Shown here piece after piece: positions 1,655-53,000 of a stretch of 64,000 bases of DNA (position 1 is its first letter; each line of letters opens with the position of its first letter). The position numbers were made by a program, and so were the translations under genes. Below the pieces are notes generated by a model. The model saw nothing but the letters and a program-made list of their open reading frames with translations, had not been told where the DNA came from and made no database searches. Origin of the DNA: an uncultured Acidobacteriota bacterium (GTDB lineage: Bacteria; Acidobacteriota; Thermoanaerobaculia; Multivoradales; UBA5704); the NCBI GenBank assembly GCA_963700145.1, contig OY969474.1, forward strand, positions 2,560,001-2,624,000, in the 5' to 3' direction.

Positions 1655-2862
1655 TCGGCCTCTCCGAGGTCGAGGCGGCGCGCGCGGCGCTGCGGGGGAG
1701 CGTCGTCGAGACCCCCTGCCTCCCCTGCCGCGCCCTCGCCGACGACCTCGGCCTCGACGTCTGGCTCAAGTACGAGAACCTCCAGCTCACCGGCTCCTTC
1801 AAGGTACGGGGGGCGCTGCACAAGCTGCGCTCCCTGCCCGCGGACGTCCTCGCCCGCGGCATCGTCGCCGCCTCGGCCGGCAACCACGCGCAGGGGGTGG
1901 CCTACGCCGCCCGCGAGACCGGCGCGCCAGCCACCGTCGTCATGCCGCTGACCGCGCCGCTGGTCAAGATCGCCAACACCGAGCGGCTGGGGGCGCGCGC
2001 CGTCCTCCACGGCGAGACCTTCGACGACGCCTACGCCGAGGCCTGCCGCCTGGCGGCGGCGGAGGGGCTGACCTTCATCCACCCCTTCGAGGACGAGCGG
2101 GTGATCGCCGGCCAGGGGACGATCGGGCTCGAGCTCGTCGAGCAGGTGCCGGAGCTGGGGGCGGTGGTGGTGCCGGTCGGCGGCGGCGGCCTCATCTCGG
2201 GCATCGCCACCGCGGTCAAGGCGCTGCGCCCGGAGGTCAAGGTCTACGGCGTCGCCACCGAGGCGGCGCCCGGCGCGGCCGAGAGCTTCCGCACCGGCAG
2301 CGTCGTCGAGCGCCCGAGCCAGCGGTCGGTCGCCGACGGCATCGCCGTCAAGAAGCTCGGCGAGCTGACCTTCGCGCACATCCGGCGGTCGGTCGACGAT
2401 CTGGTGACGGTCTCCGAGGAGCAGATCCGCAAGACGATCTTCCGCCTCCTCGAAGGGTGCAAGACGCTGGCGGAGGGCGCAGCGGCGGCGGCCGTGGCGG
2501 CGCTCGTCGCGGGGCGGCTGCCGGAGCTGGCGGGGCGGCGGGTGGCGGTCGTCCTCTCGGGTGGCAACATCGACGTCCAGCTCCTCTCGCGGATCATCGA
2601 CCTGTCGCTGGTGCAGAGCCACCGCCTGGTGCGCTTCCGCACCGGCGTCCCCGACCGCCCCGGCTCCCTCGCCGAGCTGCTCAAGGTGATCGCCGCCGGC
2701 GGCGGCAACGTGGTGCGCGTCCAGCACGACCGCGTCTTCAAGCACACCGGCTTCTGGGAAGCGGAGGTCGAGATCACCCTCGAGACCCGCGGCCCGGAGC
2801 ACGTCACCGACCTCCACCGCACCCTCCGCGAGCGCGGCTTCCACGCCGAGGTGCTGCAGTAG
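1651..2862 (+). CDS. ilvA: Threonine ammonia-lyase with C-terminal ACT domain
   Basis: GSFKVRGA PLP lysine, SAGNHAQG, PVGGGGLISG, SGGN, DRPGSL ACT motif; GTG start overlaps the upstream TGA. Confidence 0.92.
   Translation: MIGLSEVEAARAALRGSVVETPCLPCRALADDLGLDVWLKYENLQLTGSFKVRGALHKLRSLPADVLARGIVAASAGNHAQGVAYAARETGAPATVVMPLTAPLVKIANTERLGARAVLHGETFDDAYAEACRLAAAEGLTFIHPFEDERVIAGQGTIGLELVEQVPELGAVVVPVGGGGLISGIATAVKALRPEVKVYGVATEAAPGAAESFRTGSVVERPSQRSVADGIAVKKLGELTFAHIRRSVDDLVTVSEEQIRKTIFRLLEGCKTLAEGAAAAAVAALVAGRLPELAGRRVAVVLSGGNIDVQLLSRIIDLSLVQSHRLVRFRTGVPDRPGSLAELLKVIAAGGGNVVRVQHDRVFKHTGFWEAEVEITLETRGPEHVTDLHRTLRERGFHAEVLQ
2826..2862 (+). repeat. 37-bp direct repeat copy A (ilvA 3' end)
   Basis: Matches 5755-5791 at 34 of 37 nt. 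Confidence 0.85.
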
Positions 2863-2864
2863 CG

Positions 2865-3046
2865 CTGAAACGCCCAGCGGCTGCGAGCTCCGCACCCAGC
2901 AGGTGCACAGGACGGGTAGTTCAACGCCCGGTTCAAAGACGAAGACACCGAGGTTAGCGGAAACGGCGCGGTTGGCGGGCGGCTTGCTCCTAAACCATCC
3001 GTCATGTGGCGTCGTCACGTGCCCGGCCATTTCTTTCCTGCCTACA
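2865..3046 (+). promoter_or_regulatory. Degenerate copy of the sigma54 promoter/short-transcript unit at 10516-10721
   Basis: TGGCGGGCGGCTTGCT (GG-N10-GC) at 2973-2988 and colinear blocks shared with 10516-10721. Confidence 0.6.
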
Positions 3047-3200
3047 GGCAACGGATCCGATCACAGAGAACTCCAGCCTCTGGTCAGAGCCTTGCGCGAG
3101 CACTGCCGAAGGAATTGTCAGTTGGCTGCGATCAAAATCGCAGACTGGCGCAAGAATTGCCCCGATTCGGCCAACGCTGTAACGCCGGTCTATCGTCCGC

Positions 3201-4122
3201 TTAAGACCTCCTATCGGGTAGAGTCTTGGCTATTCCCACCTTGTTCAAGGCAGCGAGTAGTTTCTTATGGCCACCCTTCTCGAACAAGTTTACCCATTGC
3301 AGGTGCATGAGTCTCTCGGGGACCTCGCACTCTTCGAGCCTCGCAGGAATGATGAAGATAGTGCCAGGAGGTCGCAAGTCAGCGGCGTCAAGGGCTAGCT
3401 TTATCTCCTTTTGCACAAATCCAGTCTTGCTGACCGAGTTGCGGCTAAGGCATACGACGACGACATCTGACTTCTGTAACGCTCTCTCTATCTCCTCTTC
3501 CCAATTCTGTCCCGGCAGAAGATCCACTTCATCGAACCAAGGGTTCATGCCGTCCTTCAGCAATCTCTGATATAGATCCCTGATACGAGTTCTATCGGAG
3601 GAGGAGTAACAAAGAAAAATGACTCGCGATCTCTGCTGCCAACGTGAGTAAAGTTCCTCCGACTGGTTAGCATCAACGAGGTTTGCCTCCTCAGCTTGTG
3701 AAAGAAGCGCACGTAACCGGTCCGGGTGAATATGGCGAAGGTCCCTGTCTGAGGCCCGAAGCCAAGCATCCAACGCCGCTTCCGATACATCCATTTGTAG
3801 GTAGTAAGGCAGGTGATGTTCACCAACCTGCATCGCCATGTGGAGAAGAATGTCCTGAATGGTTTCTGTGGGTTCAAGTTCTAAGGCCAGCAGAGCTCCC
3901 TCTGCCGTGACTGCGTAATCAACTCCCAAAACTCCCTCTTCGCGCTTGACAAGTCCATCCGCTTGAAGAGTATCCAATTGGAGTTGAATCTCTTCGAGCG
4001 ACACGCCAAGTAGATAGCTTAGCCCACCAGGACTGACCCCAAAACGATTATGGAAATATGGGCTGACTCGCGTGTGGACGCCCCACAAGTAAAAGTATCC
4101 TATCTCGCAAAGACGTGCTCAT
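3201..4122 (-). CDS. TIR-domain protein (possible N-terminal winged helix); apparent frameshift near the 5' end
   Basis: IFLCYSSSD...PWFDEVDLLPGQNW...VQKEI TIR motifs; RBS-preceded ATG at 4122 is out of frame with the main ORF (3201-4088); low GC. Confidence 0.8.
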
Positions 4123-4214
4123 CTCTCCGCACCTATCGATTGTATCGCCCAGCGTTCAGGCGCCAGCTTGATGGTGGCGGTCCGCTCGCTCGAGAGTCAG
4201 GCGGCGTATTCAAT

Positions 4215-4901
4215 TCAGTACCACATGTGCATTGGCAGTCCGGTTGAGTCGAACGCGGGCTCCGCCGGCAGCCGGTTCGCTGTACTCGCCAGCGCGCGCC
4301 GAGTTGTCCAGAGGTTGGCGAACGCGTCGGCAAGATCGTCGGCACCGAAGCGGTTACCGCGGAGAGTCGCTGCCAGCCTTGTGAACTCATTCGAGCCGTA
4401 GAGTTGAGCAATCAGCTCCTGGCGACACTGCTTGCCCGCTGCGCTCTTCTCGCGGTGAACCATCGGGGTGCCCGCCCAAGCGGCAAAGCACAATTCCGGA
4501 TGAACATCAAGCAACCGATGGCGCAACTCAGGATTGGCCTGCAACACACTGTCGATCTCTCGGATCTTCGGGAGAATCGCGAACGTCTGCCGTGAAACCC
4601 GCCGACCATCAACAGTGGCGGTGATGTTGCAGGCTTCCTCCCAGGAGGTTGCGCGAAGCGCAGGTCGGATGGGAGTGGGAAAAACGCTAGCGCAGCGGGG
4701 CCATCCCAGTTTGACGCGTGCCGCTTGATCAGCTCGCCGTGAGCCACGATCAGGAAGACCGATCGGCACGTCGATGGCGGCAAAGTCGTAGTCAAAAGCA
4801 ACCAGCTCCGCTGTAGTCAGCACATAGGCCGAGAGGTGGAGTCGCTGGTGTCCATGACTACTACGACCCATCCGTCCTTACATCCGTCAGAGTCTGCTCA
4901 C
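4215..4901 (-). pseudogene. DUF429-family predicted nuclease, frameshifted near the 5' end
   Basis: DGCKDGWVV in one frame; AIDVPIGLP, VHPELCF and DDLADA in another. Confidence 0.72.
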
Positions 4902-5557
4902 GATAAACCGAGCGATCCAACCTTGTTTTGGGTGGCGCTTCGAGTCGTCAGGGCCTCGTGATAAACCAACCGTGGGTAGTGGTCCATGAGGTTGATGAAC
5001 TCTCCGCGGTTAGAATCTTCAACAATCCGTCGCATCTTTCGGGCGGTTGGCGTCGAGACGTGGGTTGCGACAGCGTCCCAGTCGAATGACGCGAGCTTCA
5101 CGAGCCAGGACGAGTAACGTTCATGCTTGAGGATTTCGTACAGCAGCTCATAGAAGCTCGTGCCGAACTCATTTCTCTTGCCGTCGCCGCTCGCAAGGAC
5201 CAGTACCGTGGGCGACTTCTGGTGCAGCGCCACCAACCTCCAAATATGACCGATAATTGCGTGGTCGACTCCCCTCTCTCGCCATTGGAGATCGCGAAAG
5301 AGCCGCTGAGTATCGTAGTTGTTCTTCTGGTATTCGGCCCAGACCTTCTCCATCCCTGGCGGTACTCCTCCGGACACGATCTTTGTACTCAGGCCCTTCC
5401 CGCTACCTCCAAGTATGCGGTCAAGATTCCTCACGCTAATTCGAGCGCGATGGTCTGCGATGTTGGAGTCTCGAATTCTAGTAGCCCCTCGCGCACCGCC
5501 CCAGACGTTGCTGTGGTCTACGAATATGTGCACAAACGGCAGGATCTCATGTGCCAT
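4898..5557 (-). CDS. NYN/PIN-like domain protein (predicted RNase)
   Basis: IFVDHSN, RGVD and LVLASGDG acidic motifs; low GC. Confidence 0.68.
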   Translation of the reverse strand: MAHEILPFVHIFVDHSNVWGGARGATRIRDSNIADHRARISVRNLDRILGGSGKGLSTKIVSGGVPPGMEKVWAEYQKNNYDTQRLFRDLQWRERGVDHAIIGHIWRLVALHQKSPTVLVLASGDGKRNEFGTSFYELLYEILKHERYSSWLVKLASFDWDAVATHVSTPTARKMRRIVEDSNRGEFINLMDHYPRLVYHEALTTRSATQNKVGSLGLS

Positions 5558-5754
5558 AGCCCCTAAAGCTCCTCGATGCCCAGTGTAGCAAGGCCGCCGT
5601 TCCGCCGGCGCCCCCGTTTCGGTGCCCGACCTACGGCTGTCGCGGCGATGGCTGCGGGCGGGAATCGGCCTGGGCGTGGAGGTGGGGGAGGTTCGTTATC
5701 CGGGCGACTTGAGGCCCCGGCGAGCGGCTGCGCGCTGCGGACTCGGCGGCGACA

Positions 5755-5791
5755 CCGCGAGCACGGCTTCCACGCCGAGGTACTGCACTAG
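5755..5791 (+). repeat. 37-bp direct repeat copy B (duplicate of ilvA 3' end)
   Basis: ccgcgagcacggcttccacgccgaggtactgcactag versus 2826-2862. Confidence 0.85.
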
Positions 5792-5822
5792 GAGCTAGAG
5801 GGAGGAGCGCCGTCCCGGACCG

Positions 5823-6046
5823 CTACAAGGCGCTCCGGAATTCCTCGACCGTCAGCCCGGCCTCGCGAATGAGCGCACGGAGCGTCCCCTTGGCGACGCT
5901 CCGATGGCTTGGCACGACCAAGCGTCGATGGGGCTCTTCGACATGCCGGAGGACGACATGGCTCCCCCGCTGGTGGTCAACCTTTATCCGAGACGCTCGA
6001 AGGCGCGGATCGCCTCCGCACCTGAGATGCTAGGGAGCCTGCTCAA
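5823..6046 (-). pseudogene. hicA: HicA-family toxin, frameshifted
   Basis: SRLPSISGAEAIRAFERLG, then a 1-nt deletion giving TAA; continues KVDHQRGSHVVLRH...GTLRALIREAGL in the shifted frame. Confidence 0.82.
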
Positions 6047-6253
6047 ACCGACTTCGACGACCTCTTCCTCGATCGGTGGCGGAATCGGCTCACCATGCGC
6101 CTTGAGGCTCTCGAGGTAGGCCTCGATCGCTTCCTGTACGTTGGACAGGGCCTCTCCGCGGGTCATCCCCTGCGAGACGCAGCCTGGGAGAGACGGCACC
6201 TGGGCCACGAAGACCCCGTCTTCGTCGCGCTCGATCAGCACTCGGTATTTCAT
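5984..6253 (-). CDS. hicB: HicB-family antitoxin reading through into the hicA N-terminus
   Basis: MKYRVLIERDEDG...VPSLPGCVSQGMTRGEALSNVQEAI is a typical short HicB; no stop before hicA. Confidence 0.85.
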   Translation of the reverse strand: MKYRVLIERDEDGVFVAQVPSLPGCVSQGMTRGEALSNVQEAIEAYLESLKAHGEPIPPPIEEEVVEVGLSRLPSISGAEAIRAFERLG

Positions 6254-6319
6254 TCCCCACCTGCCCTTCCGGAGACCAGCAGCCAGTTTACCAGGAGCCA
6301 AGAGGCGGCTGGGGCCGCC

Positions 6320-6537
6320 GCCGGACCTGGAGACGTCCTCCCGGGCGCCGGAAACCCGTTTCCAGGTGCTCGGGAAGATCCCGGGCCGCTCCGGGATAGA
6401 TCTCCGGGGCCTGGAGATAGATTTTCCGGGCTCGGAGATCTATCTCCGGGCCTTGGAGATACATCTTCCGGGGTCGGAGATCTATCTCCAGGCCTTGGAG
6501 ATAGATCTCCGGGCCTCCAAGATAGATCTCCTGGCCT
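6320..6537. repeat. 21-bp-period degenerate tandem array, left part
   Basis: Near-palindromic core GGAGAT(A/C)(G/T)ATCTCC about every 21 nt; resumes at 10340. Confidence 0.8.
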
Positions 6538-6692
6538 GGTACTGTCCTATTTAGTTTCCCGCCCGTCTGACCCCTTGATTCCGCGCTAGCTTCTCCCCCG
6601 AAGGGGGAGGCGTTCTCCCCTCAAACCGAAGCGGCCCGACGGAGCGCAGGCACGCCCCGCCGAGCCTGACCACGCACGGAGGACTAGCCCCC

Positions 6693-7106
6693 ATGCACGG
6701 CTCAGACGAGTCTACCGCCCCGCGCCCCGCCGTTCCCCCACCCACCATCGACCCCGCCAAGTGGGAAGACTTCCCGACGTTCCGAGAAACCTTCCTGCGC
6801 TGGTTCACAGAGCCTACGGCGAACGCCGCGCTCCGCAGCTTTGGCGTGCTCCTCCACGACCTGATTCTGGAAGCCAACCGCGTCCAGCCCGACGAGCCGG
6901 AGGGGATCTACCGCCACGACCTGCGCGCAGCGTTGGCGGACCTCCGCGCGATCCAAGGCTTCCTAGCCTTCATCGCTCAGTCGCAAGAGGACTTGGACGA
7001 GGACGACGCCGAGGACGCCGATTCCCTCCGGCTGTGCTACCTGGCAGAGCAGCTAGCGCCGCGCGTCGGGCGGATCGCGGACAGCATCGAAGGGGCGTTG
7101 TCATGA
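6693..7106 (+). CDS. Hypothetical protein (transposon passenger)
   Basis: GGAGG RBS; ATGA overlap with the next gene. Confidence 0.7.
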   Translation: MHGSDESTAPRPAVPPPTIDPAKWEDFPTFRETFLRWFTEPTANAALRSFGVLLHDLILEANRVQPDEPEGIYRHDLRAALADLRAIQGFLAFIAQSQEDLDEDDAEDADSLRLCYLAEQLAPRVGRIADSIEGALS

Positions 7107-7447
7107 GAGCGCGCAAGCTGGAAGGCGGCGAGCTGGCGGTGGCCCTGCACATTCTGCGCATCATCCGCGGCTGGACCCAGGCCGAAGTCGCCACGGCGGC
7201 CGGGACACGGCCCGGCGCCGTCTCCTACTACGAGAGCGGCCTGAAGGCGCCGGAGCTGCCGACGTTGAGGGCCATGCTGGAAGGGATGGGCTACCAGCTC
7301 TCAACGCTCGACGAAGCGCGGGCGTTCATCCGGCAGGTGCAGAGGGGCGATGCTCCCGCATCCGAGACGAATGCCCAGCTCCTCGCGCTGGAAGTCGGCC
7401 GGCTCGCTACGCGCTTCGCTGCCGCGCTCCTGGAGGCGCGGAAGTGA
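7103..7447 (+). CDS. XRE-family helix-turn-helix protein
   Basis: LRIIRGWTQAEVATAAG...VSYYESGLKAP. Confidence 0.85.
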   Translation: MRARKLEGGELAVALHILRIIRGWTQAEVATAAGTRPGAVSYYESGLKAPELPTLRAMLEGMGYQLSTLDEARAFIRQVQRGDAPASETNAQLLALEVGRLATRFAAALLEARK

Positions 7448-7881
7448 ACCGGCTTCGGACCGCGACGTTCACGGTTCACGGCACCACGGCGCAGAGCGCG
7501 CGGTGGAAGCAAGCGGCAGAGGCCGAAGGCTTCGCCAGCGCCGGCCAATGGCTTGCGGCGGCGGCCGATAGCTACCTCAAGGCTAGAGCTCGCGCCGGCG
7601 CTCCGGTGCCGCTGGCGTGGCGCCTGGGGCGCTTTAAGGTGCGGCTAGAGGACGGGGGCGAGGAGCTGGTGAGCGGCCACCTATCGCCCCCGTTCGCCAG
7701 CTTCCGGGGCGGGAGCGATGGGCCAGCGCCGCGCGGCTTCAACGTCCATAGTCTCGTCTACCTGCCAAGCGGGCGCATCCTTGCGACCGTGCGCCGCTAC
7801 CAGGAAGTGAGGGCGCTCGCGTCTGAGCTGGCGCGGCAGTGGCTACGGGAAGAGCAGCCGGCCAGGATCGTGTTACCGTGA
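7444..7881 (+). CDS. Hypothetical protein, possible N-terminal ribbon-helix-helix
   Basis: GTGA overlap with the HTH gene; TFTVHG...ARWKQAAEAEG...GQWL pattern. Confidence 0.55.
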   Translation: MNRLRTATFTVHGTTAQSARWKQAAEAEGFASAGQWLAAAADSYLKARARAGAPVPLAWRLGRFKVRLEDGGEELVSGHLSPPFASFRGGSDGPAPRGFNVHSLVYLPSGRILATVRRYQEVRALASELARQWLREEQPARIVLP

Positions 7882-7886
7882 GCGCC

Positions 7887-8138
7887 ATGCCTAAGCGCCC
7901 ACGCAGACCCCGCGACCCTAACGAGCTGGCGTTTCAGGTCTACCAGGAAGCCATTGGAGAGGCGCCGCCGCAAGCCGACGAGGACGCAGGAAAGAATCCC
8001 GCAGCTGTGGCGCTCGGGAAGCTCGGTGGAGCGAAGGGCGGGAAGGCGCGGGCGGCAAGGCTCACAAAAGAGGAGCGGAGCGAAGCTGCGCGCAAAGCCG
8101 CGCTGGCCCGATGGGCAGCCTCAGCGCGCAAAGATTAG
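7887..8138 (+). CDS. Small basic KGG-like protein
   Basis: MPKRPRRPRDPNELA...KNPAAVALGKLGGAKGGKARAARLT...ARW. Confidence 0.75.
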   Translation: MPKRPRRPRDPNELAFQVYQEAIGEAPPQADEDAGKNPAAVALGKLGGAKGGKARAARLTKEERSEAARKAALARWAASARKD

Positions 8139-9049
8139 GGTGGAATGTGGACTTGGACCTGTTGTTTGACGAACGCGTTTCCTAGGTGGTTCTCGATGAT
8201 CTTGAATGCTGCCGTGTTCGTCAGGCTGTGCATATAGCAGTGATGCACCGTTAGCACGAGATCCTGTAAGTGTTGATCGTCCTCGATCAGCTTGACCTTT
8301 AGACCAATCGCTGCGCACTCGTCAAAGTGAATGTGGCGTTGGTGTGCGCGGTTACGGCTGTAGTCGGTCAGTTTTTTTACGATTCGCGCAGCCTTCTGCG
8401 CGGCGTCCGGCTCGCCGTCAAACATTACTTGCTCTAGCTGCTCCCTCACGAAGTCATTAGACCAGCGAATTGCATTCTGGCAACGGCTGAGGAGGGTTGG
8501 GGGGTATTGCGCGATGATCGGCTGCCACACCGCCAGTGCCGCCGGATCTTTCTTAATCTCTTTCAACGCCCTCTTGAACTCAGCTATGATCCCGAAGGCT
8601 GGACGTCCAGCAAGATGCGGGTCCATTGGCCCCAAGTTGGCGTGGCGAGCCATGAGAATCTCATGGCAGGAACAAGCCAGCATCGTGCCGGCCGACATCG
8701 CAATCTGCGGCACAATGGCCCGGATATCCTTGCCGAACATCTTGCGGAGGTAATGCACCAGCGATTCTGTGGCGGCAATATCGCCGCCTGGCGTGTGGAG
8801 AATGAGGTCTAGGCCGATGGCGCGATCCATTCCGTGCACGGCCATCATAAAGCCGTTCTTATCTTCGTCGTTGATCTCCGCCATTGGTAGCGAGGGCTTC
8901 GAGAGAAAGCCAGAATAGTATGCGATGATGTTCCTGTGGGTGAGCTGGTGGAGCTGGCCTAGATAGTCATGGCGGACACCATCAACAGCAAGCGCCGCCA
9001 AGTTCTGGCGGCGCTTGATCTCGGCTAAGACTTCCTTCCAGTTCGGCAT
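8135..9049 (-). CDS. SDH/S49-like ClpP-fold serine protease
   Basis: LDLILHTPGG, AMSAGT nucleophile motif, LGPMDP; lower GC. Confidence 0.85.
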   Translation of the reverse strand: MPNWKEVLAEIKRRQNLAALAVDGVRHDYLGQLHQLTHRNIIAYYSGFLSKPSLPMAEINDEDKNGFMMAVHGMDRAIGLDLILHTPGGDIAATESLVHYLRKMFGKDIRAIVPQIAMSAGTMLACSCHEILMARHANLGPMDPHLAGRPAFGIIAEFKRALKEIKKDPAALAVWQPIIAQYPPTLLSRCQNAIRWSNDFVREQLEQVMFDGEPDAAQKAARIVKKLTDYSRNRAHQRHIHFDECAAIGLKVKLIEDDQHLQDLVLTVHHCYMHSLTNTAAFKIIENHLGNAFVKQQVQVHIPP

Positions 9050-9064
9050 GCCTGGAAGGCTATC

Positions 9065-9268
9065 TTAACCCACGATAGGATCTTCGAAGGGCGAGTACGT
9101 CGTGATGTAGCGCACCTCAGGATTGGACGTCTGGGTCTGCGGCAATACGACCACAGGTGGAGTGTAGCCCCTCAATAGCTCGAGACGCTCTTGCTCCAGA
9201 TCCTGCGGTTCAGTCCGTTCATGGGTAGGCTGCACTCGCTTGGCGCCCGCCCGGCCTCGAACGCGCAT
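9065..9268 (-). CDS. Small hypothetical protein upstream of the protease
   Basis: AAAGGAGG RBS before ATG; stops 15 nt before the protease start. Confidence 0.5.
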   Translation of the reverse strand: MRVRGRAGAKRVQPTHERTEPQDLEQERLELLRGYTPPVVVLPQTQTSNPEVRYITTYSPFEDPIVG

Positions 9269-9306
9269 AGCGTGAACCTCCTTTCACGGTACAGGTACTC
9301 GTGATG

Positions 9307-9409
9307 CTATCACGAACGCTGCACCTTGTCGAAACACCCTAGCACGATCTGCGCCTTGTCAACCCCCGCCAGCACGAGCCGCGTCTTGTCAACCCCTGTC
9401 AACCCCCCG
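9307..9409 (-). promoter_or_regulatory. Tandem ~30-bp repeats carrying -35 boxes; probable passenger-operon promoter
   Basis: Repeated cttgtc(a/g)a...agcacga units (TTGACA/TCGACA on minus); TCGACA-17-TAGCAT. Confidence 0.55.
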
Positions 9410-9418
9410 CCCAAAGGC

Positions 9419-9447
9419 TTGACTTTGCCTAAGCGCCTACGTATAAT
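9419..9447 (+). promoter_or_regulatory. Near-consensus sigma70 promoter of the transposase
   Basis: TTGACT-17-TATAAT, 7 nt before ATG 9455. Confidence 0.8.
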
Positions 9448-9454
9448 GTCTAGT

Positions 9455-10330
9455 ATGGCTAACGTGCTCAGCACCGAGAAGCGAGTCGAGATCGTCCGCT
9501 GCCTGGTCGAAGGCTTAGGCATCCGCGCCACCGCCCGCAAGGAGCGCGTGTCCAAGGACACCGTCATGAAGCTCTGGCGGGAGATCGGCGAAGCCTGCAT
9601 CCAGCTCATGGATGAGAAGCTGCGCGGGCTCACCTGCAAGCGGCTCCAGGTCGATGAGATTTGGGCGTTCTGCCACGCCAAGGAAAAGAACGTCCCGGCC
9701 GACAAGCGGGGCGTCTTCGGCTACGGCGACATCTGGACCTTTACCGCGATTGACGCGCAGACCAAGTTGATTCCGTCCTTCCTGGTCGGCACGCGGGACG
9801 CGGGGTGCGCCACCGAGTTCATGCAGGACTTGGCGGGCCGGCTGGTCAACCGCGTGCAGCTCACCACGGACGGACACAAGATGTACCTGTCCTCCGTCCC
9901 GGATGCCTTCGGGGGCGGGATCGACTTCGCGCAGCTCCAGAAGATTTACGGCGGCGGGCCGACGGATGAGCAGCACCGCTACAGCCCGGCGAAGTGCCTA
10001 GGGACCGAGCGGCGCCGTATCCTCGGCGACCCCGACCCCAAGCACGTCTCGACGTCCTACGTCGAGCGCGGGAACCTGACCATCCGCATGAGCATCCGCC
10101 GCTTCACCCGGCTAACGAATGCCTTCTCGAAGAAGGTCGAGAATCACGTCGCGGCGCTCGGGCTCTTCTTCGCCTACCACAACTTTTGCCGGATTCATCA
10201 GACCCTGCGAATCACTCCGGCGATGGCGGCCGGGGTCACGACGCGGATATGGGAAGTCGAGGAGCTGGTGGCGCTCCTGCCGCCGGTCGCGCATGCGGGC
10301 GGTCGGCCGCGCCGGGCGGAAACTAACTAG
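9455..10330 (+). CDS. IS1-family DDE transposase (single ORF)
   Basis: N-terminal HTH, QVDEIW, WTFTAID, TTDG, TSYVERGNLTIR, NAFSKK; stop lies inside the right TIR. Confidence 0.9.
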   Translation: MANVLSTEKRVEIVRCLVEGLGIRATARKERVSKDTVMKLWREIGEACIQLMDEKLRGLTCKRLQVDEIWAFCHAKEKNVPADKRGVFGYGDIWTFTAIDAQTKLIPSFLVGTRDAGCATEFMQDLAGRLVNRVQLTTDGHKMYLSSVPDAFGGGIDFAQLQKIYGGGPTDEQHRYSPAKCLGTERRRILGDPDPKHVSTSYVERGNLTIRMSIRRFTRLTNAFSKKVENHVAALGLFFAYHNFCRIHQTLRITPAMAAGVTTRIWEVEELVALLPPVAHAGGRPRRAETN

Positions 10331-10339
10331 GACAGTACC

Positions 10340-10505
10340 CCTGGCCTTGAAGATATATCTCCGAGCCTCCGAGATATATCTCCAGGCGTCCAAGATAGAT
10401 CTCCAGCCCTCGGAGATAGATCTTCCGCGGCTGGAGATCTATCTCCAGGCGCCCGGGAGACATCTCCCGGCGCCGCCGGGACATCTCCAGGCGCTGGGGG
10501 GACAT
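10340..10505. repeat. 21-bp-period degenerate tandem array, right part
   Basis: Same GAGATA(G/T)ATCTCC units as 6320-6537. Confidence 0.8.
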
Positions 10506-10568
10506 CAACCTTCGACTGAAATGCCCAGCCGGTGCGCGGCGGGTGCCAAGCGGGTGAGCGGCGGGGGT

Positions 10569-10640
10569 AGTTGAGCGTCCGGTTCAACTTCCGTGAAATG
10601 AGTGACTTGGCGCTCGCGCCCCGCTGGCGCGCGGCTTGCC
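10569..10640 (+). promoter_or_regulatory. Sigma54-type promoter with upstream palindrome
   Basis: TGGCGCGCGGCTTGC at 10625-10639; AGTTGA-N9-TCAACT at 10569-10589. Confidence 0.62.
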
Positions 10641-10650
10641 TCTGCCCCCT

Positions 10651-10709
10651 GCCGAACCATCCGTCCGATGTGGGCCGTCGCGTCACCGTGCCGCGGCGGC
10701 CCCTTTTTT
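10651..10709 (+). ncRNA. Candidate ~60-nt small RNA
   Basis: Lies between the predicted sigma54 +1 and an intrinsic terminator; no ORF. Confidence 0.5.
10672..10709 (+). terminator. Intrinsic terminator
   Basis: 11-bp stem gggccgtcgcg/cgcggcggccc followed by CTTTTTT. Confidence 0.75.
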
Positions 10710-10731
10710 CTCCCGACTACAATCCGCGGCC

Positions 10732-11151
10732 GTGAAGCCCTGCGTCTTCTGCGAGGTGGTGCGCGGCGAGCGGGAGGCGGCGGTGGTCTAGGACGCGGAG
10801 ACGGTGGCGTTCCTCGACCACAGGCCGCTCCTCCACGGCCACTGCCTGCTGGTGCCGCGGCGGCACGTCGAGACGCTGGCGGAGCTGCCGGCGGAGCTCG
10901 CCGGGCCGCTCTTCGCCAACGTGCAGCGGCTGGCGGGGGCGGTGGAGCGGGGGCTGGACGCCGCCGGCGCCTTCGTCGCGATCAACGTCAAGGTCAGCCA
11001 GAGCGTCCCCCACCTGCACGTCCACGTCGTGCCGCGCTGGAAGGGGGACGGCCTCTTCTCCCACAAGCTCCTCTGGAAGCGCACACCCTACGCCGGCGAC
11101 GCCGAGAAGCGCGAGGTGCAGGAAAAGATCCGCCGGGCCCTCGCCGAGTAG
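10732..11151 (+). pseudogene. HIT family hydrolase with in-frame TAG at codon 20
   Basis: KPCVFC...VV*DAETVAFLD...GHCL...HLHVH; TAG at 10789-10791. Confidence 0.78.
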
Positions 11152-23713: not shown

Positions 23714-25201
<1,488 letters not shown>

Positions 25202-50062: not shown

Positions 50063-53000
50063 ATGCCGCTCTCGCGTCTCCGCTCCTCGGCCCTCGCGAC
50101 CTGTCTTGCCCTCGCGGCGCTTCTTGCCGGCCCCGCCGCGGCGCAGACACCGCTCCGCTTCCTCAACTTCGGTCCGCCGCAGGACCCGACGCCCGACCTC
50201 GGTAACAGCACCGGCGACTCGGGCGTCGGCTCGGCCGCCGCCGAGCCGTCGATCGGGGTCAACTACGCGACCGGCGCGATGATGTACATCGCCTTCCTCG
50301 ATACCCTGCGGCTCACTCCGAACCACTGCTCCTCGCCGCCCAGCGTCGAGTGGCTCAACAAGAGCTTCACCACGACGGCGGTGCGGACCCTCGATCCGAT
50401 CCTCTTCACCGACCACGACACCGGGCGCACCTTCTCGAGCCAGCTCGCCGGCAAGTGCAGTGCCATGGCCTTCTCCGACGACGACGGCGACACCTGGACT
50501 CCCAGCCAGGGGTGCGGCATGAACGCCGGCGCCGACCACCAGACGATCGGCGGCGGCCCCTTCCCGGCGAGCGACCCGATCAAGGGGACCACGGCCTACG
50601 CGAACGCCGTCTACTACTGCTCGCAGGACGTGGCGCTGGCGCAGTGCGCCCTCTCGCGCGACGGCGGCGTCACCTTCGGCCCCGCGGTGCCGATCTACAC
50701 CCAGGCCGACTGCTCGGAGATCGGCGGCAAGCTCCACGGCCACGTCAAGGTCGCGCCCGACGGCACCGCCTACGTGCCGCAGTCCGGCTGCAGCGGCCAC
50801 CAGATCGTCTCGGTGAGCGAGAGCTCCGGCGCCACCTGGACCGTGCGGCCCATCCCGCAGTCGACCAACGGCCAGGGCTCCGATCCGGCGGTCTACGCCG
50901 ACGCCGCCAACCGCATCTACTTCGGCTACGTCGACGGCGACGGCAAGGTGAAGGTCACGACCTCGACCGACCGCGGCCTCAACTGGACGCCGTCGGTCGA
51001 CGTCGGCGCCGCGGTCGGCGTCGTTGCCGGCGCCTTCCCGCAGGTCGTGGCCGGCGACGCCGGCCGCGCCGCCGTCGCCTTCCTCGGCTCGGACAACCCC
51101 GACCTGACCAGCGCCTACGGCACCGACGTCACGGCGCCGCACACCTGGTACCTCTACATCGCCGTCACCTACGACGCCGGCGCCAACTGGGAGACGGTCG
51201 CGGTGACCCCCGGCGACCCGGTCCAGCGCGGCACCATCTGCATGCAGGGGACGCTCTGCGCCGGCGGCCGCAATCTCCTCGACTTCAACGAGATCGACGT
51301 CACCGAGGACGGCCGCGTCGTGGTCGCCTACGCCGACGGCTGTATCGGCGCCTGCCTCGCCGGGACGCCGAACAGCGGCACCGACGTGGCGCGCATCGCG
51401 CTCCAGACCGGCGGCAAGCGGCTCTACGCCGCCGCCGACGCGGCGCCCACCGACCCGCCGGCGGCGCCGGCGGTCGAGGCGACCTGGTCGCCGCCCAACG
51501 TTACGCTCACCTGGAGCGAGCCGGAGTCGCCGGCCGCGATCACCGGCTACCGCATCTACCGCCAGCGGACGGGCGAGCCGGGCTTCACCGTGCTGGCGAC
51601 CGTCGACAACGCGACCTTCTCCTACCTCGACACGCCCGGCGGTGCCAACCCGAGCCAGACCCTCTACCGCGTCGCGGCGCTCAATGCCAACGGCGAGGGC
51701 CCGCACTGCGGCGAGCCGGAGCTGCTGCCGGCGCTGGCCGTGGACCCGTGCACGCCGCCCGGCGTGACCGTCGCGGTGGACAGCTTCGATCCCCTCCCCG
51801 TCCTCGACGGCAACTTCGACGCCCAGTCGGTGTCGCTCGCCGAGCCGTTCGTGGGCGTGGGCGTCGACCGGCTCGACTTCACCATCGAGCTGGCCGACCT
51901 CACGGACCCGGTGCCGGCCGGCGCCTGGTTCGTGCTCTGGAACCGTCCGGTCCCCGACGCCGGGGCGGACCGCAATTACGTCGCGATCAAGAGCACCGGC
52001 CTGCCCGGCGGGCTCACCTTCGAGCACGGCACCGTCTCGCCGCCCAACGCCAACGTCGCGAGCAAGCTGGGGGACCTGACCGGCGGCGGCGACTTCACCG
52101 CCGACACCTTCACCGTCAGCGCCGACCCGGCGCTCTTCGACGGCATCGGCGCCGGCGACGACATGCCCGGCGTCGAGCTGCGGACCTTCACCGGCACCAG
52201 CCCGGCGACGGTGGCGCAGTCGGCCTCGACCGACTTCAGCGGCGCCGGCAACTACGCCGTGGTCGGCAACGCCTTCTGCGCCCCCAACGACTTCCCCGTA
52301 GCGCTGGACGACGCCGCCTTCACCGACCCGGGCCAGGCGAAGGTCATCGACGTCCTCGCCAACGACACCGACCCGAACGGCGACGAGCTGCGCGTCGCGG
52401 TCGTCTTCCAGCCGCCGCACGGCACGACCGCGAAGACCCCCGAGGGGGAGATCCTCTACACGCCGGACAACGGCTTCTCCGGCGTCGACGCCTTCCAGTA
52501 CAAGGTCGCCGACGGGCGCGGCGGCGAGGCGATCGGCGACGTCGCGGTGACCGTCCAGGTCCTGCCCAACTTCGCGCCGCACGCGGTGGACGACGAGGCG
52601 ACCGTGCCGGCCGGCCACAGTGTGGCGATCGAGGTCGTGGCCAACGACACCGACCTCGACGACGACGAGCTGACGATCGCCAGCGTCACGCTGCCCGGCG
52701 CCTGCGGCACGCCGCTCCTCGACGCCGGCGCCAACCGGATCAACTTCTTCGCCGACGCCGGCTTCCTGGGCGGCTGCTGCTTCAACTACGTGGTCCAGGA
52801 CGGCAGCGGCGGCGCCGACACCGGCGAGGTCTGCGTCAACGTCACCTGTGCGCCGGTGGCGACCGGCGACCTGCTCTACGACTTCCAGGTCGACGCCCAG
52901 GGGTTCACCGCCGAGCACGTCGAGCCCGGCCCGGCCGGCTCGCTCGACTGGGCGCTCACCAGCGGCCCGCCCGGCGCCACCAACGTCGATCCCCTCAACG

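Follow-up and report, generated by a model that had tools for sequence, protein, structure and literature searches.

Introduction

Sigma54 promoters follow a GG-N10-GC consensus with elements of the TGGCAC-N5-TTGCW type. In Vibrio, the Qrr RNAs of the LuxO/sigma54 system are short Hfq-type small RNAs (sRNAs) driven by an activator together with sigma54, and Campylobacter and GlnZ are said to provide further cases of sigma54-driven sRNAs. Two systems come closest to the locus described here. In Enterobacteriaceae, GlmY and GlmZ are transcribed from sigma54 promoters with sites for the activator GlrR and for IHF; according to the main text of that study, these promoters, three TGTC-N10-GACA activator sites and the IHF sites are conserved in 39 enterobacterial genomes, and the sites were tested by mutation and EMSA (PMC3045617). 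In Myxococcus and its relatives, Pxr has a predicted sigma54 promoter, adjoins the putative activator gene nla19, forms two to three stem-loops and is conserved across genera, with tandem paralogues in Cystobacter, again as described in the main text (PMC5568312). A literature search covering main texts found no sigma54-dependent sRNA in Acidobacteriota.

Here, we analysed a 206-bp non-coding segment, called copy B for simplicity, in an acidobacterial genome of 5.46 Mb (one contig, 73% G+C), and we use the term window for the whole stretch of 64,000 nt in which it lies. The segment had been proposed from its letters alone to encode a sigma54-dependent sRNA of about 60 nt, i.e. an inverted repeat, an IHF-like segment, a -24/-12 promoter, an unpaired 5' seed and a terminator hairpin in this order. 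The premise of this original prediction, namely that RNAs driven by sigma54 and an activator exist, is borne out by the main texts on GlmY/GlmZ (PMC3045617) and Pxr (PMC5568312). Our analysis suggests that the segment is probably not a conserved small RNA gene, and that the hairpin read as the ancestral ilvA terminator, which the original prediction had itself named as its null, fits the context better than an sRNA does.

Results

Elements of the segment

In copy B, a -24/-12-type motif precedes a canonical intrinsic terminator by 33 nt, and all motifs listed in the original prediction are present at the positions given in Table 1. The limits of the 5' block are based on a pairwise alignment with 2863-3047 and on the MAFFT alignment A1. 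About 20 nt in front of the hairpin had been proposed to be unpaired, in agreement with the fold that we obtained for this part of the hypothetical RNA, and the candidate C-rich unpaired 5' seed is AACCAUCCGUCC. Mechanical open reading frames overlap the segment. The earlier statement that it holds no real one agrees with the absence of a codon-phase G+C signal (0.22, non-coding-like) and with indels between copies A and B that are not multiples of three, and a small-protein reading was ruled out on these two grounds.

Table 1. Positions in the window of the elements of copy B, of its duplicate (copy A) and of the surrounding inserted DNA.
Feature	Position	Strand	Remarks
Left 37-bp direct repeat (last 37 bp of ilvA)	2826..2862	+	92% identity to 5755-5791
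Copy A, diverged duplicate of the flank	2863..3047	+	follows ilvA stop; promoter motif and AACCATCCGTC kept; no good terminator
Right 37-bp direct repeat (orphan ilvA 3'-end fragment)	5755..5791	+	right boundary of the 2.9-kb island
Array, left part	6353..6537	.	GGAGATNNATCTCC units
IS1-family transposon, 3.8 kb	6538..10339	+	inside the array; inverted repeats 6538-6565 and 10313-10339 (27-28 bp)
Array, right part	10340..10510	.	adjoins copy B
5' block of copy B	10513..10568	+	homology to post-ilvA-stop sequence begins here (CTGAAATGCCCAGC...)
Inverted repeat AGTTGA-N9-TCAACT	10569..10589	.	AGTTGA 10569-10574; TCAACT 10584-10589
IHF-like segment AATGAGTGACTTG	10597..10609	+	8/9 positions of WATCAR-N4-TTR
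Sigma54-type -24/-12 motif TGGCGCGCGGCTTGC	10625..10639	+	TGGCGCG-N4-TTGC(C)
Predicted mostly unpaired 5' part of hypothetical RNA, gccgaaccatccgtccgatgt	10651..10671	+	fold: weak 4-bp helix only
11-mer AACCATCCGTC	10655-10665		within gccgaaccatccgtccgatgt; identical 11-mer in copy A
Terminator hairpin	10672..10702	+	11-bp G+C-rich stem, 9-nt loop
Hairpin arms	10672-10682; 10692-10702		GGGCCGTCGCG; CGCGGCGGCCC; then C
T6 tract	10704..10709	+	with the hairpin, canonical Rho-independent terminator; 22 nt before HIT start codon
HIT-family gene	10732..11151	+	downstream of terminator; GTG start; PF01230; in-frame TAG 10789-10791

The promoter-like motif and its upstream sites

The pattern TGGC-N7-TTGC occurs eight times in the window versus 1.64 expected, and none of 100 shuffles reached eight. 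Genome-wide it was found 191 times, and other spacings or the reversed pattern, taken as controls, gave 61-137 matches; in DNA devoid of a codon-phase G+C signal the counts were 71 versus 22-34 in the controls, i.e. roughly 40 (about 41) matches above background. The motif had been put forward as a promoter element, and these counts place it above chance. Ranked with a crude genome-derived log-odds mixture model, the copy B motif is 25th among the 71 non-coding-like matches (+3.3 bits) and the copy A motif 28th (+3.0 bits); since the model was fitted on the sites that it scores, the copy B motif is compatible with, not proven as, a sigma54 site. Less favoured letters are the G in place of A after TGGC and the C in place of A or T after TTGC. 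We regard the motif as a credible candidate for a sigma54 binding site and as a plausible, putative promoter.

The upstream elements of the original prediction were correctly described, but neither of them stands out from chance. The inverted repeat, a candidate activator site with its centre about 70 nt ahead of the predicted start, is present, but some 6-bp inverted repeat per 200 nt is what chance would provide by our own estimate, and the counterpart in copy A, AGTTCA...TCAAAG, forms no inverted repeat. The exact sequence AGTTGA-N9-TCAACT occurs once in the genome, and a search for similar sites upstream of other sigma54-like motifs returned a single match with one mismatch. No activator gene adjoins the candidate site, the nearest Sigma54_activat match being 13.5 kb off (24113-24604 in the window). 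Similarly, the IHF-like segment is present but at chance level (8 matches in the window versus 7.4 expected, allowing at most one mismatch to WATCAR-N4-TTR) and is not conserved in copy A. The genome encodes rpoN (PF04552 at 221 bits), enhancer-binding proteins (19 PF00158 matches, about 15 of them strong) and hfq (PF17209 at 57 bits).

The terminator hairpin

The hairpin region 10651-10712 folds at -26.4 kcal/mol (z = -2.9; 3 of 200 shuffles were as stable), and the 42 nt preceding the T6 tract fold at -24.4 kcal/mol, which is rank 8 by upstream folding energy among the 159 runs of T6 or longer in the genome. Canonical terminators of this kind are rare at a genomic G+C content of 73%, given that only about 9% of these 159 runs are preceded by a stem at least as stable as -20 kcal/mol. 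The 11-bp hairpin with its U-tract, as originally drawn, is therefore present and exceeds chance; a simple terminator scanner had missed it because the loop limit of the scanner is 8 nt. Genome-wide, 124 sites were classed as terminator-like (T5 or longer, closed by a hairpin at least as stable as -16 kcal/mol), and two of them carry TGGC-N7-TTGC 30-250 nt upstream on the same strand, versus 0.48 expected and none in the downstream control. These two are copy B and a site at G000:C1:3468609-3468859 (G000 denotes the genome under study), which is described at the end of the Results.

In common with intrinsic terminators at the 3' ends of genes, copy B has a G+C-rich 11-bp stem, a short loop and a T6 tract on the ilvA strand, and the homologous region in copy A lies about 150 nt past the ilvA stop codon; in contrast to such terminators, the one in copy B is now 7.6 kb away from ilvA. 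A terminator is demonstrably encoded, and it would presumably act as one.

The duplicate behind ilvA

Copy A (2863-3047) aligns to 10513-10716 of copy B with 132 identities in 179 columns (74%), or 135 in 183 with slightly longer ends. Its homology starts 2 nt past the ilvA stop codon, and the homology of copy B begins at the same point of the flank. The promoter motif of copy A (TGGCGGGCGGCTTGC at 2973-2987) is identical to that of copy B at 14 of 15 positions, and the 11-mer AACCATCCGTC recurs without change at 2993-3003. The original prediction had taken this as conservation of a promoter and a seed, and as far as the letters go this was right, but the terminator has been lost in copy A and the 'seed' abuts the promoter. 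Owing to a 10-nt deletion, the 11-mer follows TTGC at a distance of 5 nt, so that a transcript starting about 12 nt past the -12 element would begin inside the 'seed'. The hairpin region of copy A differs from that of copy B by five small deletions only, and its fold (z = -0.8) is about as stable as those of shuffled sequences. Identical runs of 8-11 nt are expected at 74% identity: 33% of 20,000 shuffles of the match vector contained at least as many runs of at least 8 nt. Because copy A adjoins the 37-bp repeat at the island edge, we take it for a version of an ilvA 3' flank that belongs to the island itself and may have been captured in another host. Both copies are likely to derive from sequence that once lay directly 3' of ilvA.

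Inserted DNA between ilvA and the HIT gene

The ilvA gene, with PALP and ACT domains, ends at 2862. The inserted DNA amounts to 7.6 kb and has copy B at its right edge. This DNA begins with an island enclosed by the 37-bp repeats, between which the G+C content is 51-60% and the open reading frames encode a TIR-domain protein, a DUF429 protein and one unassigned protein; no integrase or recombinase gene was found among the island ORFs. We also considered an integron, but when 2860-5800 was searched for inverted repeats, no palindrome downstream of the island ORFs resembled attC convincingly, and the idea was dropped. To the right of the island, a HicB-like ORF on the minus strand is followed by an array of 21-bp phased palindromic repeats, a type that is found at 17 loci of the genome and also at the ilvA-HIT junctions of the congeners G001 and G004. 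The array is split by the IS1-family transposon, whose transposase (9326-10330) matches PF03400, whose inner motif occurs at these two places of the genome only and whose insertion is marked by an 8-bp target duplication (CCTGGCCT at 6530-6537 and 10340-10347).

The segment in relatives and in wider searches

At E <= 1e-40, a query of 200 aa from the C-terminus of IlvA matched 14 of 31 genomes, among them all four other species of the genus. In G003 (82% over the ilvA query) 15 nt separate the ilvA stop from the HIT start. In G004 (96%) the interval between the ilvA stop and HIT holds nothing but an array of the 21-bp type of about 260 nt, which directly follows the stop, and both the promoter motif and the hairpin are absent. 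In G001 (95%) ilvA is followed by about 360 nt, the array, about 110 nt that can barely be aligned, the hairpin loop with 3' arm and T5, and an intact HIT gene; the loop, 3' arm and T5 are retained at 93% identity and the sequence is nearly identical onward into HIT, and neither the -12 element nor the 'seed' nor the 5' arm is present. The retained 3' arm in G001 pairs with a different upstream segment at -28.4 kcal/mol, a weak signal relative to shuffles (z = -1.7). In G002, ilvA has a different downstream neighbour. The unit of promoter, seed and terminator is thereby intact in none of the three syntenic congeners (G001, G003 and G004). Since G001 keeps the terminator end only, what survives in the nearest relative is the terminator and not the proposed RNA; since G003 has no flank at all, the flank is a lineage-specific acquisition, and the expression 'ancestral ilvA terminator' is valid within a sub-clade only.

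The combined pattern of promoter and seed was found twice in this genome and in none of the 91 other family genomes. The most conserved 23-nt block had no exact match in the family; with up to three mismatches allowed, matches with two or three mismatches appeared, as they did for the reversed control, and were read as chance or coding matches. Two exact patterns had no match in genomes of 185,579 species. A BLAST search with copy A against 400 class genomes, a sample in which the unpublished genome G274 contributes to the negative count only, gave short chance-level matches, mostly to 37 coding bases. A plasmid collection contained no match for the island with copy A or for copy B, and a metagenome scan with the 200 C-terminal residues of IlvA recovered distant relatives only (best 48% identity), which are too remote for comparing the intergenic region. 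Homologues of the proposed RNA, which the original prediction had named as a check, were accordingly found neither in the syntenic congeners nor among the family and class genomes, the 185,579 species and the plasmids. The Rfam comparison that it had likewise named gave no family at gathering score, Qrr included: Rfam 15 had no such match in the whole window. The matches below threshold were driven by the terminator and rejected, the best of them being mmgR/suhB (RF00519; 13.4 bits versus 41, E 1.3-2.8).

Comparison with known sigma54-dependent sRNAs

Set beside GlmY/GlmZ as described in the main text of PMC3045617, copy B shares a -24/-12 promoter motif directly upstream of a short putative non-coding RNA that would end in a terminator, and an inverted repeat and an IHF-like segment lie upstream in the order given by the original prediction. 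It differs in that its single 6-bp inverted repeat lies only about 70 nt upstream and is not conserved, in that its IHF-like match does not exceed chance, and in that its RNA would be about 58 nt long and is absent from congeners. The likeness to Pxr, again within the main text of PMC5568312, consists in an intergenic candidate sRNA with a sigma54-type promoter and a duplicated copy, whereas copy B has one hairpin, no orthologues and its nearest Sigma54_activat match 13.5 kb away. The segment also differs from Qrr, to which it has no Rfam match and whose set of paralogues has no equivalent here beyond one decayed copy.

A conserved RNA family, R1, elsewhere in the genome

The second terminator-like site with an upstream motif (G000:C1:3468609-3468859, minus strand) has a canonical TGGCACAGCGGTTGCA, then low-GC non-coding sequence over about 215 nt and finally a strong terminator, and belongs to what we call the R1 family. 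BLAST matches to R1 were obtained in 19 of the 24 family genomes searched. Twenty copies from 12 genomes all carry GGCA[CT]-N5-TTGC[AT] upstream at a fixed distance, and RNAalifold predicts a closing helix and two hairpins in which 8 of 24 pairs show double compensatory changes. The core of 161 nt, with its covarying helices, was turned into a covariance model that detects R1 in 90 of 92 family genomes with one to six copies each, mostly two to three in tandem. In a class sample R1 was found in 15 of 151 genomes, 14 of which, the present genome among them, are from families of this order; the single match outside the order is weak. No Rfam family was found for R1. R1 shows that sigma54-type promoters evidently drive small RNAs in this lineage.

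R1 and copy B resemble each other in that they occur in the same genome, have TGGC-N7-TTGC followed by a non-coding stretch and a terminator, and contain a C-rich unpaired motif of the AUCC-NN-CC type. They differ in the promoter, where GGC is followed by A and TTGC by A or T in 20 of 20 R1 copies, and by G and C, respectively, in copy B. When copy B was scored as a possible R1 member, 10650-10707 reached 4.9 bits (E 0.12, filters off) among 53 noise matches, compared with 150.8 bits for the true copy, and membership was rejected. R1 shows what a genuine case looks like, i.e. deep conservation, whereas copy B is missing from sister species.

Discussion

To the reading that the segment is what remains of an ilvA 3' flank, terminator included, duplicated with an island, stranded by mobile DNA and now insulating a broken HIT gene, we assign roughly even chances of being correct. 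A non-coding flank ending in a strong Rho-independent terminator would once have lain directly 3' of ilvA, and successive insertions at or just after the ilvA stop codon would have moved it 7.6 kb away. One insertion would have brought the hicB-like gene with the 21-bp repeat array, another the IS1-family transposon into this array, and a further one the 2.9-kb low-GC island, bounded by the 37-bp ilvA 3'-end repeats and carrying its own diverged flank as copy A. The terminator would now halt rightward transcription coming from the transposon and the array 22 nt before the stop-interrupted HIT gene. We infer the order of the insertions and the function of the terminator, and likewise that the promoter motif would be inactive or irrelevant; the motifs themselves, the duplication, the architecture of the insertions and the missing conservation are directly visible. 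Several observations argue against the terminator-remnant reading: the motif is better than random, its pairing with a terminator is rare, and 14 of its 15 positions are kept in a copy that is only 74% identical; rpoN, enhancer-binding proteins and hfq are present; G003 has no flank; and terminator function is deduced from sequence.

A rival reading is a young sRNA. In this case, a lineage-restricted RNA of about 55-60 nt, starting near 10650 under control of sigma54 and an activator and ending in an Hfq-type U-tail, would base-pair with mRNAs. The -24/-12 motif has the correct spacing and a positive genome-derived score, it co-occurs with a canonical terminator as is rarely seen (2 of 124 sites, 0.48 expected), it is retained together with the 11-nt block in copy A, the host has rpoN, about 15 strong Sigma54_activat matches and hfq, the genome uses sigma54-type promoters for a non-coding RNA family, and sigma54-dependent sRNAs are established elsewhere by the main texts on GlmY/GlmZ (PMC3045617) and Pxr (PMC5568312). 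However, the unit is kept in none of G001, G003 and G004 and was found nowhere else in the searches; in copy A the terminator is missing and the 'seed' directly adjoins the promoter; the two variable promoter positions that carry most information hold G and C, where R1 promoters have A and A/T in 20 of 20 copies; and the candidate activator site is unique, lies about 70 nt upstream and is not conserved. Perfect 10-12-nt complements of 10651-10671 are scattered throughout the genome with no concentration apparent at gene starts, and a few of them overlap SD/ATG-like contexts, e.g. near genome positions 2267355 and 2936838, which is uninformative as to targets. We consider such an RNA unlikely. 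Slightly more doubtful is its specific form, in which a species-restricted sigma54- and activator-dependent, Hfq-type sRNA of about 58 nt would have been born in the ilvA 3' flank, would have a diverged copy on the attachment flank of an integrative, defence-type island and would be at a stage of birth and decay. The original sRNA proposal is thus supported in part: its anatomy is as described, the pairing of motif and terminator is rare and the host machinery is present, but the unit is broken or absent in congeners and its duplicate lacks the terminator.

Two further readings take the motif or the duplication into account in other ways. The motif could be a sigma54 promoter of the HIT operon, gained after the insertions, with the hairpin and U-tract serving as a leader attenuator. 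In G003 the HIT gene is 15 nt from ilvA and presumably co-transcribed with it; as the insertions part the two genes in G000, G001 and G004, HIT would need a new promoter there, and the 22 nt between the T6 tract and the start codon are too short for another one. Yet in G001 the HIT gene is intact and the hairpin is there but the -12 element is lacking, G004 is devoid of promoter motif and hairpin alike, a stop codon interrupts the HIT frame in G000, and a stem of -24 kcal/mol followed by T6 looks constitutive, with no anti-terminator fold detected, so that we regard this reading as very improbable. Alternatively, the two copies could be attL/attR-type flanks of an integrative island; the conserved blocks, the inverted repeat among them, would then bind a recombinase instead of serving as transcription signals. 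Direct repeats surround low-GC DNA with the 37-bp ilvA 3'-end repeat at the island edges, the locus is a hot spot of insertion in three genomes, and the 6-9-6 geometry of the inverted repeat resembles core-type sites. Against this, the island has no integrase or recombinase gene, about 190 nt on both sides of the repeat are homologous and not just a short core, copy A has no such inverted repeat, and the terminator would be left unexplained; this possibility, too, appears very remote.

Whether terminator remnant or sRNA, the segment is an instance of kinds that are already known. If the sRNA were real, it would represent very young, lineage-specific riboregulation under sigma54 control in a poorly studied soil phylum, and a case of an sRNA gene that travels on a mobile-island flank; each would extend known kinds only modestly. 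At present, the main use of the segment is to mark how mobile DNA has rebuilt the ilvA-HIT junction. The more valuable product of this analysis is R1, an order-wide family of structured and often tandem RNAs whose sigma54-type promoter is invariant and for which Rfam has no entry. R1 offers a directly testable sigma54-sRNA system in this group.

Inserted DNA between ilvA and the HIT-family gene

The coordinates of all features are collected in the table below. The island that follows ilvA carries three genes, all on the minus strand: one encodes a TIR-domain protein (PF13676), another a DUF429 protein, and the 219-aa product of the third is unassigned; neither an integrase gene nor clear attC-like sites were found within it. 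In the HicB-like antitoxin ORF, the C-terminal residues together with the next frame were observed to resemble the start of a putative HicA-type partner. Because the end of the ORF and the frame that follows look HicA-like, the two members of this pair may be fused or frameshifted.

The IS1-family transposon is inserted within a 21-bp repeat array. It is bounded by inverted repeats of 27-28 bp (6538-6565 and 10313-10339) and flanked by an 8-bp target duplication, CCTGGCCT, and its cargo besides the transposase comprises genes for an XRE-type HTH protein and an SDH-type ClpP-like protease as well as three unassigned ORFs. Arrays of GGAGATNNATCTCC units were detected at 17 loci of the source genome, and the same array type occupies the ilvA-HIT junction of two sister species, lying immediately 3' of the ilvA stop codon in one of them (G004).

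The HIT-family gene of the window is interrupted by an in-frame TAG at 10789-10791, where the sister species G001 has an intact VVYEDAE. The gene is either a pseudogene or one whose translation restarts at the GTG at 10804, with loss of the N-terminal CxxC-containing segment.

Features in the window and related loci (L009, L015 and L133 are extracted sequence stretches; C1 is the single contig of the source genome, G000)
Feature	Coordinates	Strand	Remarks
Low-GC island	2863-5754		51-60% G+C; flanked on both sides by a 37-bp direct repeat derived from the ilvA 3' end
HicB-like antitoxin ORF	5800-6301	minus	PF15919 match
Phased palindromic array, GGAGATNNATCTCC units	6353-6537 and 10340-10510		21-bp period, 42-bp super-period
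Same array type	L009:1140-1400; L015 about 2104-2370		
IS1-family transposon	6538-10339		3.8 kb; inverted repeats and target duplication
HIT-family gene	10732-11151		PF01230 match
TGGC-N7-TTGC sites	2973, 3146, 4616, 10625, 14084, 21113, 38791, 50451		
Sigma54_activat gene	24113-24604	minus	
Structured non-coding RNA family, source-genome copy	G000:C1:3468609-3468859 (= L133:810-1060:-)	minus	outside the window

Sigma54-type motifs and a conserved RNA family

The window holds 8 TGGC-N7-TTGC sites where 1.64 would be expected, and four of them fall between 2.9 and 10.7 kb; the site at 50451, on the minus strand, is a canonical TGGCAC...TTGC. Outside the window, an invariant sigma54-type promoter, GGCA[CT]-N5-TTGC[AT], lies at a fixed distance from an RNA whose 161-nt core contains covarying helices and is accompanied by a terminator. 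No corresponding family was found in Rfam. This RNA is present in 90 of the 92 genomes of the taxonomic family, mostly as 2-3 tandem copies, and also in other families of the same order, with one weak match outside the order. The source-genome locus is a copy of this conserved, structured non-coding RNA family.
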